Shown: positions 38,554 through 44,535, counted from the first letter of the stretch. The stretch: DNA of 64,000 nucleotides from an uncultured Collinsella sp. (GCA_902470915.1 CABRIB010000001.1:551-64550), one strand, 5' to 3'. The notes: generated by a model not told the origin, from the letters alone. Numbers and translations are program-made.

Positions 38554-39645
38554 CTACAGTTCAGCTTCCAGTTCGGCTTTGTGTTCGTTGAGGTAGTCGC
38601 GCATGTAGGGGATGGCAAATGAGACCTTGCCGTACGAGGGCGCCTCAATGATCGACTCTCTCAGCAGACGACTGCGGATGGAACTTACCTGTTGAGGTGT
38701 CTTGTTTAAGTCATCGGCAACCATGCTGGTCGAGCTCGTCTGCCCTAAGGACGCCATGCTCAGCAGATAAGCGATGCACGTGGGCGGAATGCGCTGCAGC
38801 GCGGGCTCAATCACCATTGCGCAGAAGCGTTCGCGTGCTGTTGCGATGCCTCGCTTTGCCTCTTCCTCTCCAATTACAGTTGTATGGGCGCGTCGTGCCA
38901 GTTGCCATGCGTAATATCCAACGAGCTGAATCATAAAGGGGTAGCCTTGCGTTGCCTCGGCAAGTTGGCCGGCAATACCTGGTTGCAGCTCCATGCCCGA
39001 TGCTTCAATGGTTTCTTCGAGGGAGTACGACACTTCGGTTACTGCCACAGCCTTCAGGTCAAAGGGGAGGGCACGGCGCAAAAACGTAAGTGTCTTTCCG
39101 TTGATGACGCTTTCTATCATCGAAGGCAGCCCCGCAAAAACAAAGGCGATATCAAGGTCTTCGCCGATAACCTGTTGAATCGCAATGGAGAGCGTTCGGA
39201 CCTCATCGAGCTCTGCGTCTTGAACCTCGTCGAGGGTGATGAGCAGGCCATTTCCATTCTTGGATATAGCCTGCCTCATGGCGTCGCGCAGCGATGGACC
39301 GATTCGCTCAATGTCTATGCTGCCGATGGATATGCCAGCTACGGTGGGCTCAAATCTGGCGTGTTTGGCCTGGAATTTGGGCTGCAGCTGCTCGAGAATG
39401 CGCTGACAAAGTCCTTCGGTTGCGACTTCTTTTATGACCGTCCAGCCACGGCTTTGCGCCAAACGTGAGCACTCGTCAAGGAGGACCGTCTTGCCCGTTC
39501 CGCGGACGCCGGCTATGCGCATAAGGCGCCCCGGGGCGCCAGGACCGTTGACGAGGCCTTCATTGAATTCCTCGAGGACATCTTCGCGGCCGATAATCGT
39601 GGGAGGTGTTTTGCCTGCTGTGGGCTTAAAAGGGTTTGTTTGCAT
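38554..39645 (-). CDS. AAA+ ATPase of the Orc1/Cdc6-like (archaeal ATPase) type with a C-terminal wHTH-like domain
   Basis: Walker A GVRGTGKT, Walker B LLITLDEVQ, and a C-terminal ~80 aa helix-rich region. ATG 39645 follows AAAGGTGA; GTG 39654 is an alternative start. Confidence 0.75.
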   Translation of the reverse strand: MQTNPFKPTAGKTPPTIIGREDVLEEFNEGLVNGPGAPGRLMRIAGVRGTGKTVLLDECSRLAQSRGWTVIKEVATEGLCQRILEQLQPKFQAKHARFEPTVAGISIGSIDIERIGPSLRDAMRQAISKNGNGLLITLDEVQDAELDEVRTLSIAIQQVIGEDLDIAFVFAGLPSMIESVINGKTLTFLRRALPFDLKAVAVTEVSYSLEETIEASGMELQPGIAGQLAEATQGYPFMIQLVGYYAWQLARRAHTTVIGEEEAKRGIATARERFCAMVIEPALQRIPPTCIAYLLSMASLGQTSSTSMVADDLNKTPQQVSSIRSRLLRESIIEAPSYGKVSFAIPYMRDYLNEHKAELEAEL

Positions 39646-39660
39646 GCGAGTCACCTTTGC

Positions 39661-39768: not shown

Positions 39769-40449
39769 CTATTTTCCAAAGGCCACGCGGATAAAGCGCT
39801 GGGCGAAGAGCTTATTGGCGACGTTGATGACATGGCCCAGGAACAGTGCCGAGATGGCGGTCGTGACGCCAAAGCCGCCCAGGTTGTGCATAAAGACCAG
39901 CGACAGCGCGAGCGAGGCGGCGACGTGCGAGCAATCGAATACGACCTTCACATCGCCAAAGCGGCATTTGAGCTTTTCGGCAATGACCTGTACCAAGCCG
40001 TCGGGTGCGTTGGGAACGACGCCCATATTGACGACGAGGCTTACGCCAAACGCGGTGATGGCAAGCGAGAGCAGCATGGTTACGACCTGTGCCGGCAGCG
40101 CGGTGGGGTGCAGAGGGTTAACGTTCATAAAGAAATCGGTAAAGCCGCCGATCAGCGTTGAGAAAAAGAGCTCGAGCAAAATGCGCGGCTGAAACTCGCG
40201 GCGCAAGATGGCTGCCTGTGCGGCAATGTAGGCGACATAGGTCGCGGTAATCCAAAAGCCGAGCGTCTTGCCGGTGAGCATGGACAGCGTCGTGGCAAAA
40301 CAGGTAAGCGCTGCCACGCCTAGGCCCGACGCAGTCTGGATGCTCATGCCGAGGGCGAGCGTCGCGACGCCTGCTAAATACATCAACATCCTGATGACGG
40401 TATGGCACCAATCGATCTTCTCGCCATTCATAATGATGAGCGGTCGCAT
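39769..40449 (-). CDS. YczE-like polytopic membrane protein (uncharacterised family)
   Basis: About 226 aa with 5-6 TM helices (LMYLAGVATLALGMSIQTASGLG...). ATG 40449 follows GAAAGGA. Confidence 0.7.
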   Translation of the reverse strand: MRPLIIMNGEKIDWCHTVIRMLMYLAGVATLALGMSIQTASGLGVAALTCFATTLSMLTGKTLGFWITATYVAYIAAQAAILRREFQPRILLELFFSTLIGGFTDFFMNVNPLHPTALPAQVVTMLLSLAITAFGVSLVVNMGVVPNAPDGLVQVIAEKLKCRFGDVKVVFDCSHVAASLALSLVFMHNLGGFGVTTAISALFLGHVINVANKLFAQRFIRVAFGK

Positions 40450-40481
40450 GCTGCTACCCGTCCTTTCGGTTGTGAAGAAAA

Positions 40482-40617
40482 GGCTGACCTGGGCCGGCAA
40501 AAGAGGGTTATCGGAGGCACTGCTGTAAAAGCAGAAAAGCCGGCCCCACGGTCAGTCGTCTAGGAAATGTCTCGCTGTGCCGGAATGGGACTGAAGGGCC
40601 AACGAGACGGGAGGAAA
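40482..40617 (-). ncRNA. Candidate structured RNA element, copy 1 (5' leader of the yczE-like gene)
   Basis: On the - strand it shares conserved single-stranded blocks with copy 2: TTCCTCC, AGTCCCATTCCGG, GACGACTG and AGCAGTGCCTCCGATAACC. Four helices are kept by different sequences in each copy. Confidence 0.45.
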
Positions 40618-40628
40618 GCAAATGACAT

Positions 40629-40688
40629 AGCGTGGGCAATAGGATGCCAAGATGGTAGGGTGCGTCTTAGCATCCTATTGCCCACGCT
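40629..40688 (-). promoter_or_regulatory. Leader hairpin: 19-bp perfect stem with a conserved 22-nt loop (copy 1)
   Basis: AGCGTGGGCAATAGGATGC - caagatggtagggtgcgtctta - GCATCCTATTGCCCACGCT (+ strand). The paralog is at 44579-44636. Confidence 0.6.
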
Positions 40689-40690
40689 TG

Positions 40691-40706
40691 ACGAAATCGG
40701 TTTCGT
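40691..40706. promoter_or_regulatory. LacI-type operator ACGAAATCGGTTTCGT (copy 1), with a TATACT -10 box at 40716-40721 on the - strand
   Basis: 16-mer identical to 44653-44668, with 7 of 8 dyad pairs and a central CG. It lies 9 nt downstream of the candidate -10. Confidence 0.55.
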
Positions 40707-40759
40707 TTGAGCCTTAGTATACGCACGGGATTCTATTTGCAAAGAGAAAAATAATAAAA

Positions 40760-40775
40760 AGGTGAACGTTCACCT
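40760..40775. promoter_or_regulatory. AGGTGAACGTTCACCT operator in the yczE-like / HIT divergent region
   Basis: Perfect 16-bp palindrome identical to 18937-18952. Confidence 0.65.
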
Positions 40776-40939
40776 AATCGCAACAACTCGTTGGCTGTAT
40801 TATGACAAGGACATACTCGAAACCGATTTCGCAACGGTTAGAGAGTGCATTGTACGTTCGTCGTAGATTGCCGGGCAGCTTGGTCGCGCCCGCCGGTCGC
40901 ATTGCGGCGAACGCCTTCACCCGGATCGAAAGGATCACC

Positions 40940-41374
40940 ATGGAACAGCACACCGATTGCTCGTACTGCATGTGCGGGACCGACAACACGCTCGTCGATG
41001 CCTTTGGCATCCCCATGCTCGACCTGCCCGCCAGCAAGCTCATCTTGTTTAAGGAGCAGAGCCACAAGGGCCGCGTGATCGTGGCCTCCAAGCAGCACGT
41101 CGATGACATTTCCTGCATGTCCGAGGAGGACGCTGCCGCCTTTATGGCCGATGTCCGCCACGTCGCCGCCGCGCTGCACAAGGCGTTCAACCCCGACAAG
41201 ATCAACTTTGGCGCTTACGGCGACACCATGCATCACCTGCATGTGCATATCGTCCCCAAGTACAAGGACGACCCGTTTGAGTTTGGCGACGTGTTCGCCA
41301 TGAACCCCGGTCGCGTCACGCTCGAGCCGGCCCAATACGACGAGATCGCCCAAGCTATCATCGCCAACTTGTAA
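40940..41374 (+). CDS. HIT-family nucleotide hydrolase/transferase
   Basis: Histidine triad HHLHVHIVPK and an N-terminal CSYCMC motif. ATG 40940 follows GAAAGGA. Confidence 0.85.
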   Translation: MEQHTDCSYCMCGTDNTLVDAFGIPMLDLPASKLILFKEQSHKGRVIVASKQHVDDISCMSEEDAAAFMADVRHVAAALHKAFNPDKINFGAYGDTMHHLHVHIVPKYKDDPFEFGDVFAMNPGRVTLEPAQYDEIAQAIIANL

Positions 41375-41385
41375 AACCCCTTCGT

Positions 41386-41468
41386 CCCCCATAAGTTGCG
41401 GTGAAATACGGACTGTTTAGCTGCTCCAGTGGCGCCATCAGTCCCTATTTCACCGCAACTTATGGGGG
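41386..41468. repeat. Palindromic repeat, copy 3 (extended arms)
   Basis: CCCCCATAAGTTGCGGTGAAATACGGACTG...CAGTCCCTATTTCACCGCAACTTATGGGGG. Confidence 0.85.
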
Positions 41469-41532
41469 GAGCGGCGTTGCGATAGTATTACGTGTTGGTA
41501 TTCGACTAACCGAGGACATATCCGAGGGCTTT

Positions 41533-42225
41533 ATGGAACAGCACCAGCATTATCAGAGCCTGCAAGATCAGGCATACAACGCATTGCGCTCCAAGATCAT
41601 CTATGCCGAGCTCAAGCCCGGCACGCGCCTTTCGGCGATTGGTCTGGAAAAGGAGACGGGAATCGGGCGCACGCCCATTCGCGAGTCCTTTGTGCGCCTG
41701 CGCGAGCAAGAGCTGGTGGAAACGCGTCCCAAAAGCGGCACCTATGTCTCAAAAATCAGCATGGAGCGCGCCGAGAACGCCTGTTTCTTGCGCGAGAAAC
41801 TCGAGAGAAGTGTGCTCATTAAATGCTGCTCTGCCGCCACGCCCGAGCAAAAGCATCGGCTCGAGCAGATTCTTGCCGAGTCCGAGTCGCTCGACCACAG
41901 CGAAACGCGTCGCTTTTTTGACCTGGACAACCTGTTTCATGAGACATGTTTTGAGATTGCCGGCCGCCACATGTTGTGGGATTGGATGAAGAGCGTCAAC
42001 ACGCATTTCGAGCGATACAACTGGTTGCGTATGGTGTCGCAGGATCTGGACTGGGAGCCGATCCGTGGGCAACATCGCCGGATTCTTGAGGCCATTAAGA
42101 AGGGCGATACCGACACGGCGAGCTACCTGGCAGAGACGCACCTACATCTAATGCCCGAGGAGCAGGGCCCGGTTATCGCCTTGCATCCCGACTACTTTGA
42201 GCTGTCCAAAGACTCGGCAATCTAA
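41533..42225 (+). CDS. GntR/FadR-family transcriptional regulator (wHTH + FCD domain)
   Basis: wHTH (LSAIGLEKETGIGRTPIRESFVRLREQELVETRPKSGTYV) plus an FCD-type C-terminus (HRRILEAIKKGDTDTASYLAETHL). Confidence 0.85.
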   Translation: MEQHQHYQSLQDQAYNALRSKIIYAELKPGTRLSAIGLEKETGIGRTPIRESFVRLREQELVETRPKSGTYVSKISMERAENACFLREKLERSVLIKCCSAATPEQKHRLEQILAESESLDHSETRRFFDLDNLFHETCFEIAGRHMLWDWMKSVNTHFERYNWLRMVSQDLDWEPIRGQHRRILEAIKKGDTDTASYLAETHLHLMPEEQGPVIALHPDYFELSKDSAI

Positions 42226-42240
42226 TTCGTCCTCTTTATT

Positions 42241-42306
42241 AGTTGCGGTTAAATAGGGACTGTTTTGCGGCTTTGGCGGCGTAAGCAGTCCGTATTTCAC
42301 CGCAAG
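42241..42306. repeat. Palindromic repeat, copy 4 (opposite orientation)
   Basis: AGTTGCGGTTAAATAGGGACTG...CAGTCCGTATTTCACCGCAAGT. The arm variants are swapped relative to copies 1-3. Confidence 0.8.
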
Positions 42307-42604
42307 TGCGGGGGTGCAATCGGGGCATGAAAAGGCTGCGGCGCCGCTTGGAGGAAAAGACCGGAAGCAAGGGTCCATTCCTCCAGACGGCGCCGCAGCT
42401 GTTTTGGTGGACTGGATTATGTTGAGTCGGTTGATTGACCGGGAAAGCAAAGCGGCTCGGGGGCGTGTCGCTTCCGTCACGTTCTATCAGCATACAAGAC
42501 GGTTTTGGTTCTTGTTCGTGACGGAAACGGCGCGCTTCCGAGCCGCTTTAAAAGAAAGGGGGCGAGGTCTAGGACACGCCCCCTTTCACGATAGAGAGCT
42601 AAAC

Positions 42605-43246
42605 CTAGCCGCGGACCTTCTTGACGACGTCCATGGCCTCGCGGGCGATCTGCTCGACCTTGGAAAAGTCGCCGTCGGCGAACAGGGCCGGCTTGACCAT
42701 CCAGGTGCCACCACAGGCGATGATGGCGCTGGAGCTCAGGTACTCCTCGACGTTGGCGGTGCTCACGCCGCCGGTGGGCATAAAGCGATGACCGACAAAC
42801 GGAGCGGCGAGGGCCTTGATGGTGTTGAGGCCACCATACTGAGCCGCAGGGAAGAACTTGGTGACCTTGAGGCCCAGATTCTCGGCAGCAGTGACCTCGG
42901 AGGGGGTCACGGTGCCGGGAAGGACGGGCAGGTCGATGTCGATGCAGTGCTTCACGACGTCCTCGTTGTAACCCGGCGAGACGATGAACTTGGCACCGGC
43001 GGTGCGGGCCTGCTCAACCTGCTCGACGGTCAGGACAGTGCCGGCGCCGACGCACATCTCGGGCTCGGCCTCGGCCATAGCGGCGATGCACTCGGCGGCG
43101 CAGGCAGTGCGGAAGGTGACCTCGGCGGACTTCATGCCGGCTGCCATAAGGGCATGGGCGAGCGGTGCGGCGTCCTCGACCTTGTCGAGCACGACGACCG
43201 GCACGATGCCCAGGGATTCAAGCGTGGTGTAGAACTGATCGAACAT
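42605..43246 (-). CDS. eda: 2-dehydro-3-deoxyphosphogluconate (KDPG) aldolase
   Basis: Eda/KdgA TIM barrel (IVPVVVLDKVEDA, AEVTFRT, GAGTVL, KFFPA). ATG 43246 follows GAAAGGAA. Confidence 0.9.
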   Translation of the reverse strand: MFDQFYTTLESLGIVPVVVLDKVEDAAPLAHALMAAGMKSAEVTFRTACAAECIAAMAEAEPEMCVGAGTVLTVEQVEQARTAGAKFIVSPGYNEDVVKHCIDIDLPVLPGTVTPSEVTAAENLGLKVTKFFPAAQYGGLNTIKALAAPFVGHRFMPTGGVSTANVEEYLSSSAIIACGGTWMVKPALFADGDFSKVEQIAREAMDVVKKVRG

Positions 43247-43297
43247 AGTGTTCCTTTCGATGTGAGGCGCGCACGGGCGCGTGATTGCCAAAGAAGA

Positions 43298-43439
43298 TTG
43301 GCCATGAGCCGGTTCCGGATTGGTTATCGGAGGCACTGCTTGGGTCACAAGCAATTTCGGAACCGGCTACGAGGCCAGTCGTGAAGGAATGCCAGACAAA
43401 ACCGGAATGGGACTAAGTGGTTCTACCTGGCCGGAGGAA
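43298..43439 (-). ncRNA. Candidate structured RNA element, copy 2 (kdgK-eda intergenic)
   Basis: See 40482-40617. An extra hairpin GCGGGCCGCAG...CTGCAGCCCGC and a third CCCATTCCG motif lie just 5' of it on the - strand (43445-43497). Confidence 0.45.
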
Positions 43440-43500
43440 TCGGGGAGCGGGCTGCAGAGATATGGGTATGGAAAGCTGCGGCCCGCGGAATGGGGATGGC

Positions 43501-44535
43501 TTAGCGCGCGACGCGGGTGCCACCGTCGGCGGCGGATGCCACGGCTGCGATCTCGTCTGCGGTCACCAGGTTGGAATCGCCCTTGATGGTGAGCTTGAGG
43601 ATCGAGGCCGCAATCGCGTAGTTGACGGCGTCCTGCGGGGCAAAGTCGTTGATGAGGGCATGGACGAGGCCGGCGTTGAAAGCGTCGCCGGCGGCAACGC
43701 CCTCGAGCACGTGCACGTCGTGAGCAGGGGAGAACCAGTGCTCGCCGCTCTCGGCATCAAAGAGCATGCCCATCCAAATGGAGCGCTCGACGCAGGAGAT
43801 GTTGCGGACGACCGAGGCGACCTTCTTGCAACCGTACTCGGCGCAGATCTGACGGGCCATCTCGACGTAGGTGTCGCGTTCCTCGATGCCGTGGGCAAGG
43901 GAGCCGGAGACGCAGGTCATACCGAGGCCGGCAGGAGCGTCCTCGTCGTTGGCAATGCAGATGTCAACGAGCGGCAGGAGTTCCTTCATGGTGGCCTGCG
44001 ACTTCTCGGGCGACCACATCTTGCCGCGATAGTTCACGTCGCACACGGTGGTGATGCCTTTGGCGCGGCAGGCGGTGAGGGCATCCTTGCAGGCGGCGGC
44101 CATCTCGTCGGAGACGGCGGGCGTCACGCCGGAGAAGTAAAAGACATCGACACCCTTGAGGATCTCGTCCCAGTCAAAGACGTCGCGCTTGGCCATGTTG
44201 ATGGCAGAGTACTTGCGGTCGTAGACGCAGCCGTTGCCGCGCTGCGAGGCGCCGACCTCAAACACATAGGAGCCAAGACGGTCGCCCTGGCGCACGACGC
44301 GCGAGGTATCGACGTCGTAGACCTTCAGCGAACGCAGGGCGCACTCGCCCAGACGGTTGGCCGGGACAACGGAGACGTAAGCTGCCTTGTCACCCTGGTA
44401 GGCCAGGGAAAGCGCGGTGTTGGCCTCGGCGCCGCCGTAGCGGACATCAAACTCGGTCGCCTGCTCAATGCGCAGATGGTCTTTGGGCGAGAGCCTCATC
44501 ATGATCTCGCCGAAGGTAAGAACCGTTTTACCCAT
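43501..44535 (-). CDS. kdgK: 2-dehydro-3-deoxygluconokinase (PfkB family)
   Basis: The PfkB N-terminus VLTFGEIMMRLSP and GGAEANTA are typical of KdgK. ATG 44535 follows GAAGGAG. Confidence 0.9.
   Translation of the reverse strand: MGKTVLTFGEIMMRLSPKDHLRIEQATEFDVRYGGAEANTALSLAYQGDKAAYVSVVPANRLGECALRSLKVYDVDTSRVVRQGDRLGSYVFEVGASQRGNGCVYDRKYSAINMAKRDVFDWDEILKGVDVFYFSGVTPAVSDEMAAACKDALTACRAKGITTVCDVNYRGKMWSPEKSQATMKELLPLVDICIANDEDAPAGLGMTCVSGSLAHGIEERDTYVEMARQICAEYGCKKVASVVRNISCVERSIWMGMLFDAESGEHWFSPAHDVHVLEGVAAGDAFNAGLVHALINDFAPQDAVNYAIAASILKLTIKGDSNLVTADEIAAVASAADGGTRVAR

Follow-up and report, generated by a model that had tools for sequence, protein, structure and literature searches.

A structured RNA element found in no Rfam 15 family, a candidate riboswitch, beside genes of 2-keto-3-deoxygluconate catabolism in Collinsella

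Gene content of the locus and the two copies of the element

A stretch of 64,000 nucleotides (nt) from an uncultured Collinsella sp. (GCA_902470915.1, CABRIB010000001.1:551-64550), referred to below as the window, carries two copies of a structured RNA element next to genes of the 2-keto-3-deoxygluconate (KDG) pathway. Copy A (40482-40617), the representative of type A, precedes a gene encoding a DUF6198/YczE-like membrane protein, which is followed by genes for an AAA ATPase, a KduD-like short-chain dehydrogenase/reductase and an RpiB/DUF3666 isomerase. Copy B (43298-43439), the representative of type B, separates the gene for KdgK (PfkB family) from that for Eda, the KDPG/KHG aldolase, where KDPG is 2-keto-3-deoxy-6-phosphogluconate and KHG is 4-hydroxy-2-ketoglutarate. 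Both copies lie on the minus strand in the same orientation and precede genes of one pathway. The neighbours at the locus include GntR/FCD, LacI, HIT and AAA ATPase genes, and genes for known RNA-binding regulators (PRD/BglG, ANTAR, CsrA or TRAP-like) were not found in the locus. The AAA_16 ATPase gene (38554-39654, minus strand) follows the DUF6198 gene directly both in the window and in a related locus (L129, 5786-6877); its product has no NCBIfam match, and the gene has a promoter-like site of its own at 39714-39685.

No mention of DUF6198 was found in the literature. The DUF6198 gene of Enorma and other Coriobacteriia either overlaps kdgK at its end or starts 3 nt after eda (L121, 4970-6711; L125, 4970-6723; L130, 3274-5681), being translationally coupled to one or the other, and it is surrounded by uxaA, uxuA/uxuB-type, mannitol-dehydrogenase-type, aldo-keto reductase, pectate-lyase and major facilitator superfamily transporter genes. 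This neighbourhood suggests that the DUF6198 protein is a component of the KDG/uronate pathway, plausibly a transporter, so that both RNA copies would control genes of one pathway. In the relatives that lack the element, kdgK, eda, the DUF6198 gene and kduD form tight or overlapping operons with no room for it.

A preliminary description of the window had reported two minus-strand copies aligning over their whole length and four helices built from different bases in the two copies. Both statements hold: the copies can be aligned end to end, and their separate minimum free energy (MFE) folds give one architecture (z = -3.75 and -4.67) in which all four helices are present. It consists of a hairpin P1 of 12-13 bp with a 15-nt loop, the 3' part of which reads AGUCCCAUUCC; a linker, AUU(U)CCU..ACGACUG in both copies; and a long irregular stem, P2-P3-P4, with an asymmetric internal loop between P4 and P3 whose 18-21-nt 3' strand starts with UGCCUCCGAUAACC. 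In a structure-guided alignment of copies A and B, 18 pairs are identical, 8 differ by compensatory double changes and 3 by one-sided changes, and 4 further pairs extend P3 in the longer copy B alone.

Four sequence blocks are common to the two copies. The 19-mer AGCAGTGCCTCCGATAACC occurs at exactly two sites in the window, 40524-40506 and 43340-43322, against 0.01 expected, and AGTCCCATTCCGG likewise has exactly two perfect matches there. The third block is shared as ACGACTG, extended to GACGACTG in one copy and to CACGACTG in the other. The first, TTCCTCC, is common to the window copies, as had been noted, and proves not to be strict in relatives, where it appears as TTCTTCC, TTTCTCC or TTTCCCC and, in the divergent copy L134 described below, as TTATCCCCC. 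The core of about 136 nt originally outlined is real and forms part of a larger unit of about 200 nt, since a further hairpin, P0, lies upstream in both types (40688-40629 and 43486-43447). The distances from the copies to GAAAGGA and ATG, first put at 35-55 nt, come close to those measured: from the end of P2, 16 nt (copy A) and 40 nt (copy B) to GAAAGGA, and 34 and 52 nt to the ATG. A covariance model (R1) scored the two copies at 150 and 125 bits; with its filters off it found no further copy in the window, the next match, at 18.7 bits, being the reverse strand of copy B.

Distribution, covariation and strand

One genome per GTDB species was scanned with the pattern TCCCATTCC-N(52-82)-GCCTCCGATAAC. 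At least 120 loci were recovered; among the matches listed, 118 are from Collinsella or gut Coriobacteriaceae and 2 are due to chance. Applied to the Collinsella loci, the covariance model gave only two kinds of match, namely type A (102-125 bits), in every case upstream of a DUF6198 gene, and type B (144-178 bits), in every case within the kdgK-eda spacer. The more than 120 matches each stand upstream of DUF6198 or eda in the sense orientation, and no third gene context occurs among the at least 120 loci listed. A metagenome scan excluding types A and B (base K after GATAACC) returned no match, and one allowing a longer spacing returned 15 loci, of which one is a true copy and the others are chance matches. 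The true one, L134, is a divergent kdgK-eda copy scoring 111.8 bits; its KdgK is 93% identical to that of the window.

Loci were also fetched independently of the pattern, through homologues of DUF6198. The element is present in L129, whose DUF6198 protein is 87% identical, and the model has no significant match in seven loci with homologues of 64-81% identity (L121 from Enorma, L123, L125, L126, L127, L128 and L130); the values are 81% in L127, 72% in L123, 70% in L130 and 64-67% in L121 and L125/126. A weak 10.9-bit match in L127 (660-735) was rejected as an unrelated inverted repeat, CATTTTATTTTCAGGGGAAGAAA...TTTCTTCCCCTGAAAATAAAATG, which is long and near-perfect and lies a short way 5' of the DUF6198 start. 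In that locus the DUF6198 homologue sits in a rhamnosidase/GDSL-lipase context. More than 100 Collinsella genomes and one divergent metagenome variant show extensive covariation, and the element does not extend across the Coriobacteriia; as judged from these sequences, it is confined to the Collinsella aerofaciens species complex, in whose genomes the two copies are best regarded as old paralogues. C. aerofaciens ATCC 25986 (L060) is among the strains that carry it.

The 111 matches yielded 83 distinct sequences, which were fitted to the covariance model. In this alignment 94.7% of the cells are standard pairs and 15 of the 36 pairs show compensatory change; none of 500 shuffles scored as high for covariation, and only 23-45% of cells remained paired when the 3' partners were slid by 1-3 columns. 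The stated false-positive rate of the covariation measure is 0-1%. These sequences are close relatives of one another (effective number, 1.52; about 8 subtypes at the 93% identity level), and in the scanned set the design of the search itself makes the two pattern blocks invariant. With 18 non-redundant sequences including the divergent L134, compensatory change is seen in 17 of 36 pairs, again with 0/500 shuffles reaching the score. In L134, P3 is rebuilt as GGUCCGCUC/GAGCGGAUC and P4 as GCUUAA/UUAAGC, both of unrelated sequence, and the unpaired blocks are kept. About 8% of the paired cells are G-U, which would become A-C mismatches if the plus strand were read; the fold therefore belongs to the minus-strand RNA, which is the sense strand of both downstream genes.

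Copies found only through their neighbouring copy provide a check that is free of ascertainment by the pattern. The 21 pattern bases are intact in 28 of 33 type A copies reached through type B, the other five having one C->T change each, and in all 28 type B copies reached through type A. Type A thus has 5 changes over 33x21 sites and type B none over 28x21, to be set beside a third-position diversity of 0.25 in the DUF6198 gene and 0.09 in eda; the unpaired blocks are far better kept than synonymous sites. The non-block positions of type B are as diverse as eda third positions, so conservation within type B is no argument, and the case for selection rests on the comparison of A, B and L134. 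A coding function is excluded, as the spacings between the blocks vary within types (83/84 and 90/91/92 nt) and differ by 7 nt from one type to the other, so that the indels do not come in threes; a small open reading frame on either strand is ruled out by these indel lengths together with substitutions paired across helices. There is little doubt, then, that the element is a real, selected, structured RNA of the minus strand, as first proposed, and not a recently copied repeat.

No known family accounts for it. All 4227 models of Rfam 15 were run with cmscan, over the whole window at gathering thresholds and over 40300-43700 at E<=10. In the latter region neither copy was matched by any model, including Collinsella-1, and chance microRNA and small RNA (sRNA) matches fell elsewhere in it; the earlier impression that the element belongs to no known riboswitch class is borne out. 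The sole Rfam family in the window is the aspS RNA (RF02930; 11306-11389, plus strand; 77.3 bits against a gathering threshold of 42.5), reportedly a cis-regulatory motif from the Weinberg 2017 set. The element is absent from the text of the Breaker-lab surveys of GC-rich intergenic regions (PMC11109978, PMC8632094) and from the main text of the human-microbiome survey PMC8040213 (Fremin & Bhatt 2021); its sequence is likewise absent from the first 200 of the 408 supplementary files of the last, a portion that covers its thousands of candidates only in part.

Leader features, expression regions and alternative pairing

The features of the two copies are collected in Table 1.

Table 1. Coordinates of the features of copies A and B in the window
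Feature	Position	Strand	Basis and remarks
Promoter-like site, copy A, TTTGCA-16 nt-TATACT	40716..40743	-	Consensus scan only, 2 sites against 2.0 expected, weak
P0-A hairpin, about 24 bp, conserved C-rich loop CGCACCCUACCA	40629..40688	-	MFE fold and RNAalifold
5' pyrimidine block UUCCUCC, copy A	40610..40616	-	Sequence alignment; varies in relatives
P1-A hairpin, 12 bp, 15-nt loop CUUCAGUCCCAUUCC at 40596-40582	40569..40608	-	Fold and covariation
Linker, copy A, AUUUCCUAGACGACUG	40553..40568	-	GACUG(A) complementary to P1-loop (U)CAGUC; overlaps P2 5' strand
P2/P3/P4 domain, copy A	40484..40555	-	Fold and covariation
P2, copy A, CUGACC/GGUCAG	40555-40550 with 40489-40484	-	
P3, copy A, GGCCGGC/GCCGGCC	40545-40539 with 40498-40492	-	
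P4, copy A, CUGCU/AGCAG	40534-40530 with 40524-40520	-	
Near-invariant 3' strand of P4/P3 internal loop, copy A, UGCCUCCGAUAACC	40506..40519	-	Block conservation
Type A expression region	40461..40483	-	Run CCUUUUC 40483-40477, Shine-Dalgarno sequence GAAAGGA 40467-40461, ATG 40449
Extra single-stranded copy of P1-loop motif, copy B, CCCCAUUCCG	43488..43497	-	Just 5' of P0-B
P0-B, 11-bp GC-rich hairpin GCGGGCCGCAG/CUGCAGCCCGC, loop CUUUCCAUACCCAUAUCU	43447..43486	-	MFE fold and RNAalifold
5' pyrimidine block UUCCUCC, copy B	43433..43439	-	Sequence alignment
P1-B hairpin, 13 bp, loop ACUUAGUCCCAUUCC at 43418-43404	43391..43431	-	Fold and covariation
Linker, copy B, AUUCCUUCACGACUG	43376..43390	-	Alignment
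P2/P3/P4 domain, copy B	43299..43377	-	Fold and covariation
P2, copy B, UGGCC/GGCCA	43377-43373 with 43303-43299	-	
P3, copy B, GCCGGUUCCG/CGGAACCGGC	43367-43358 with 43317-43308	-	
P4, copy B, AUUGCUUG/CAAGCAGU	43355-43348 with 43342-43335	-	
Invariant loop strand, copy B, GCCUCCGAUAACC	43334-43322	-	
Type B downstream region	43244..43281	-	Small GC hairpin 43281-43268, Shine-Dalgarno sequence GAAAGGA 43258-43252, eda ATG 43246-43244

The promoter-like site of copy A would place the transcript start near 40709, and its TATACT with flanks is kept in all type A loci. P0-A shows compensatory change at two pairs (UA->CG and GC->AU; RNAalifold on 30 distinct type A upstream sequences), and in P1-A 6 of the 9 outer pairs have changed in a compensatory way. 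Two palindromes were observed in this region. Directly after the -10 hexamer lies ACGAAACCGATTTCGT (40691-40706, minus strand; arms ACGAAA/TTTCGT), whose six stem pairs are essentially invariant, without covariation, in the same 30 sequences; it may represent an operator that overlaps the start of the transcript, or else a hairpin at the transcript's 5' end. Between the start of the HIT gene (40802, plus strand) and the promoter-like site of the DUF6198 gene there is a perfect 16-bp palindrome, AGGTGAACGTTCACCT (40760-40775), which resembles a LacI-family operator and suggests control at the DNA level beside the RNA element.

At type B the consensus scan found no promoter-like site, and P0-B starts 14 nt 3' of the kdgK stop codon (43503-43501); type B is therefore intercistronic. 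P0-B carries a CG->UA compensatory change in 9 of 41 distinct sequences, and the single-stranded motif CCCCAUUCCG preceding it is kept as YCCAUUCCG in type B relatives.

The expression regions of the types differ. In the MFE fold of copy A, the CCUUUUC directly after P2 pairs with the Shine-Dalgarno (SD) sequence GAAAGGA. In all type A subtypes P2 is followed directly by a run of pyrimidines (CCUUUU, CUUUUU, UUUUUU or UCCUU), 8-12 nt 5' of the SD, and in the type A folds the run pairs with GAAAGG, the mean unpaired probability of the SD being 0.14-0.31. L134 carries a strong SD-sequestering hairpin, UCCUUUUC-GAUU-GAAAGGA, at the position occupied by the type B downstream region. No intrinsic terminator was found at either element by the consensus scan. 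The transcribed strand is richer in C than in G, with 32% vs 22% in the leader of copy A (40450-40710) and 37% vs 21% in that of copy B (43247-43501); such leaders would be compatible with Rho loading and Rho utilisation (rut) sites.

A candidate alternative pairing joins (Y)CAGUC in the P1 loop to GACUG(R) in the linker and overlaps the 5' strand of P2; 98.4% of its cells are paired, and column 73 covaries both with column 30 and with its P2 partner. When internal partners of the conserved loops were sought in stacks of at least 4 conserved pairs, only CAGUC/GACUG, a CAGU/ACUG alternative and CCGG palindrome artefacts came up. Two other pairings were rejected. The CCUCC/UUCCU stretches, initially thought able to act as anti-SD sequences, do not support that role, since UUCCUCC, UUCCU and GCCUCC are complementary to GAAAGGA(A/C) over only 4-6 nt, the complementarity is not kept from one subtype to another and the 5' block is itself variable. 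Some MFE folds also contained a closing helix that joined the 5' flank to the start-codon region; it is not kept either, UGCU changing to CACU without compensation.

A riboswitch-type sensor and its alternatives

The RNA probably regulates the downstream genes in cis. The reading favoured here, at a rough probability of 0.4, is that it is a riboswitch-type sensor in cis whose small-molecule effector would be an intermediate of the hexuronate/KDG pathway. The element combines a covarying structure and near-invariant unpaired core nucleotides with a sense-strand position, in a 5' leader or between cistrons, upstream of related genes, both features expected of a riboswitch. One aptamer-like core is joined to three downstream arrangements (A, B and L134), and a single core with differing downstream arrangements is, by analogy, the usual riboswitch pattern.

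In the proposed scheme, binding of the effector would fix the core formed by the P1 loop, the linker and the internal loop, and hence P2. Without the effector, CAGUC of the P1 loop would pair instead with GACUG of the P2 5' strand. The state of P2 would then decide, in type A and L134, whether the SD is sequestered by the pyrimidine run 3' of P2 and, in type B, whether the C-rich, G-poor leader is read through or transcription ends there, for example by Rho-dependent termination. As to the effector, a first guess would be KDPG and a second KDG; KDPG is the most economical candidate because it is the substrate of Eda and because its accumulation in Escherichia coli eda mutants is bacteriostatic. 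A more specific proposal, rather improbable in our estimation, is that the core is the aptamer of a new riboswitch class for KDPG or KDG, which would turn on the KDPG aldolase and the DUF6198 protein when the toxic phosphosugar builds up, through a three-way alternative pairing in which CAGUC of the P1 loop, GACUG of the linker and the 3' strand of P2 take part. No validated riboswitch is known for a sugar acid, glmS, with glucosamine-6-phosphate, being the only known sugar-derived case.

Several observations weigh against a sensor of this kind. Type B in the window lacks a U-run, a terminator and any obvious SD sequestor, and has only a small GC hairpin ahead of its SD; after P2 there are 4-6 U in most type A copies (GGGUCAGCUUUUU, GGGUCAGUUUUUU) and none in some (GGUCAGCCCAAUUCC). 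The CAGUC/GACUG pairing consists of invariant bases and a single compensatory pair between A and B, and in 5 sequences its terminal pair is lost through G68->A. All of the conserved unpaired blocks are rich in C and poor in G, and CCCAU(U)CC recurs in the loops of P1 and P0-B, 5' of P0-B and, in L134, in the loop of P0. The low effective diversity of the sequences, the diversity of the non-block positions in type B, which equals that of eda third positions, and the very narrow distribution, in one species complex, point the same way.

Comparison with described systems places the element nearest to the orphan riboswitch candidates of the Weinberg 2010/2017 sets, which are likewise 140-200 nt long, lie in intergenic regions or 5' leaders, have covarying helices and near-invariant unpaired junction or loop nucleotides, are associated with genes of one pathway and have downstream expression regions that vary by copy. 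Unlike them, the Collinsella element is not in Rfam 15, occurs only in a single species complex, where each genome has exactly two paralogous copies, and has unusually C-rich conserved unpaired nucleotides and one repeated loop motif. With riboswitches of high-GC bacteria and enterics that act through translation or Rho, such as the mgtA Mg2+ and ribB flavin mononucleotide riboswitches, it shares an SD-sequestering helix adjoining the core in type A and L134, a C-rich, G-poor, rut-compatible leader and, in type B, the lack of a canonical intrinsic terminator; it differs from them in having no anti-sequestor pairing supported by covariation.

The strongest competitor of the sensor is a protein- or sRNA-binding leader, in which a trans-acting factor would read the C-rich motif copies (YCCCAUUCC, together with GCCUCC) and act on the eda and DUF6198 messages through their translation, termination or stability; we consider it possible, and rate it below the small-molecule switch. 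The repeated C-rich loop motif is CCCAUUCC. In the 255-nt spacer of type B, CCCAT is present three times (0.27 expected), with the motif present again 5' of P0-B, and the P0 loop of L134, CUUUCCCAUUCC, contains a 9-mer, UCCCAUUCC, identical to that of its P1 loop (L134, 1527-1560 and 1600-1612). The repeats look more like sites of a trans-acting factor than like one ligand pocket, repeated loop motifs being typical of recognition by multimeric RNA-binding proteins or a trans-acting RNA, and the conserved unpaired blocks lack internal Watson-Crick partners. The genus-restricted range is also typical of protein-dependent leaders. However, no candidate factor is known, and the locus encodes none of the PRD/BglG, ANTAR, CsrA or TRAP-like regulators; type A has only one clear motif copy; and the long invariant internal-loop strand and elaborate fold exceed the needs of simple loop recognition. 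Multi-site protein-binding leaders (CsrA/RsmA, TRAP, HutP and PyrR) resemble the element in their short motif repeated in loops or single strands, narrow range and association with catabolic or biosynthetic operons. The motif in Collinsella, however, is CCCAUUCC and not GGA, GAG or UAG, and it has no linked gene for a cognate protein; the fold of the element is also far more elaborate, with stems under strong structural selection. ANTAR targets consist of two short hairpins whose hexaloops have A at position 1 and G at position 4, and the ribonucleic antiterminator (RAT) is a hairpin of about 29 nt, imperfectly paired, that overlaps a terminator. Neither corresponds to the element, in which the loops measure 12-18 nt (P0), 14-15 nt (P1) and 5 nt (P4) and no PRD or ANTAR protein gene lies nearby.

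The element might instead be constitutive and sense nothing, serving as an RNase III or RNase E/J site, as a 5' stabiliser setting the kdgK:eda ratio or as a fixed rut or pause region, which we regard as unlikely. The intercistronic place of type B directly after the kdgK stop would suit such a role, as would the long perfect duplexes of P0 (about 24 bp in type A), which are plausible RNase III substrates, the rut-like composition of the leaders (32-37% C against 21-22% G) and the lack of a clear switchable platform in type B. Processing and rut sites, however, rarely need 13-19-nt unpaired blocks held invariant across old paralogues with rewritten stems, one and the same core serves a promoter-proximal leader (A) and an intercistronic site (B), and the relatives manage without the element in their tight kdgK-eda-DUF6198 operons.

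A repeat acting at the DNA level, whether a miniature inverted-repeat transposable element (MITE), a repetitive extragenic palindromic (REP)-like element or an array of transcription-factor sites, or else chance similarity, would account for two similar copies 2.8 kb apart with stems readable as inverted repeats. It has been largely refuted and is very improbable: there are only two copies per locus, in fixed gene contexts and orientation, the stems have changed in a compensatory way with about 8% G-U pairs that hold on one strand only, no match was found in phage or plasmid collections, the 19-mer occurs twice against 0.01 expected, and separate palindromic operator-like sites exist nearby. 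On the grounds of context, pairing and the phage and plasmid searches, membership of a MITE or REP family was rejected.

Least probable of all is a diverged member of a described family, such as Collinsella-1 or, through the string GACUGGC, ZTP/pfl: the linker ACGACUGGC presumably resembles part of the ZTP core, but no Rfam 15 model matches either copy at E<=10. Collinsella-1 (RF01700), listed in PMC2864571, is known from the same genus and, like the present element, is a multi-hairpin non-coding element from the human gut; it differs in sequence and architecture.

The favoured interpretation remains an orphan cis-regulatory RNA, putatively a riboswitch, at genes of sugar-acid catabolism. C. 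aerofaciens is among the most abundant Actinobacteria of the human gut, and catabolism of KDG derived from uronate and pectin is core to its niche. An RNA regulator at the kdgK-eda junction would add a new layer of control to this pathway, and were its effector a metabolite, it would represent a new riboswitch class with a new ligand chemistry, that of sugar acids. Should KDPG or KDG prove to be the ligand, the element would become the first riboswitch to sense a sugar acid or an intermediate of the Entner-Doudoroff type, and the DUF6198/YczE family would gain a pathway role. If a protein is bound instead, the element would point to an unknown regulator of Actinobacteria that recognises C-rich RNA loops. 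The two old paralogues with rewritten stems offer a natural mutagenesis series, and the element provides a handle on DUF6198, a family without known function that is nevertheless tied to KDG genes across Coriobacteriia.

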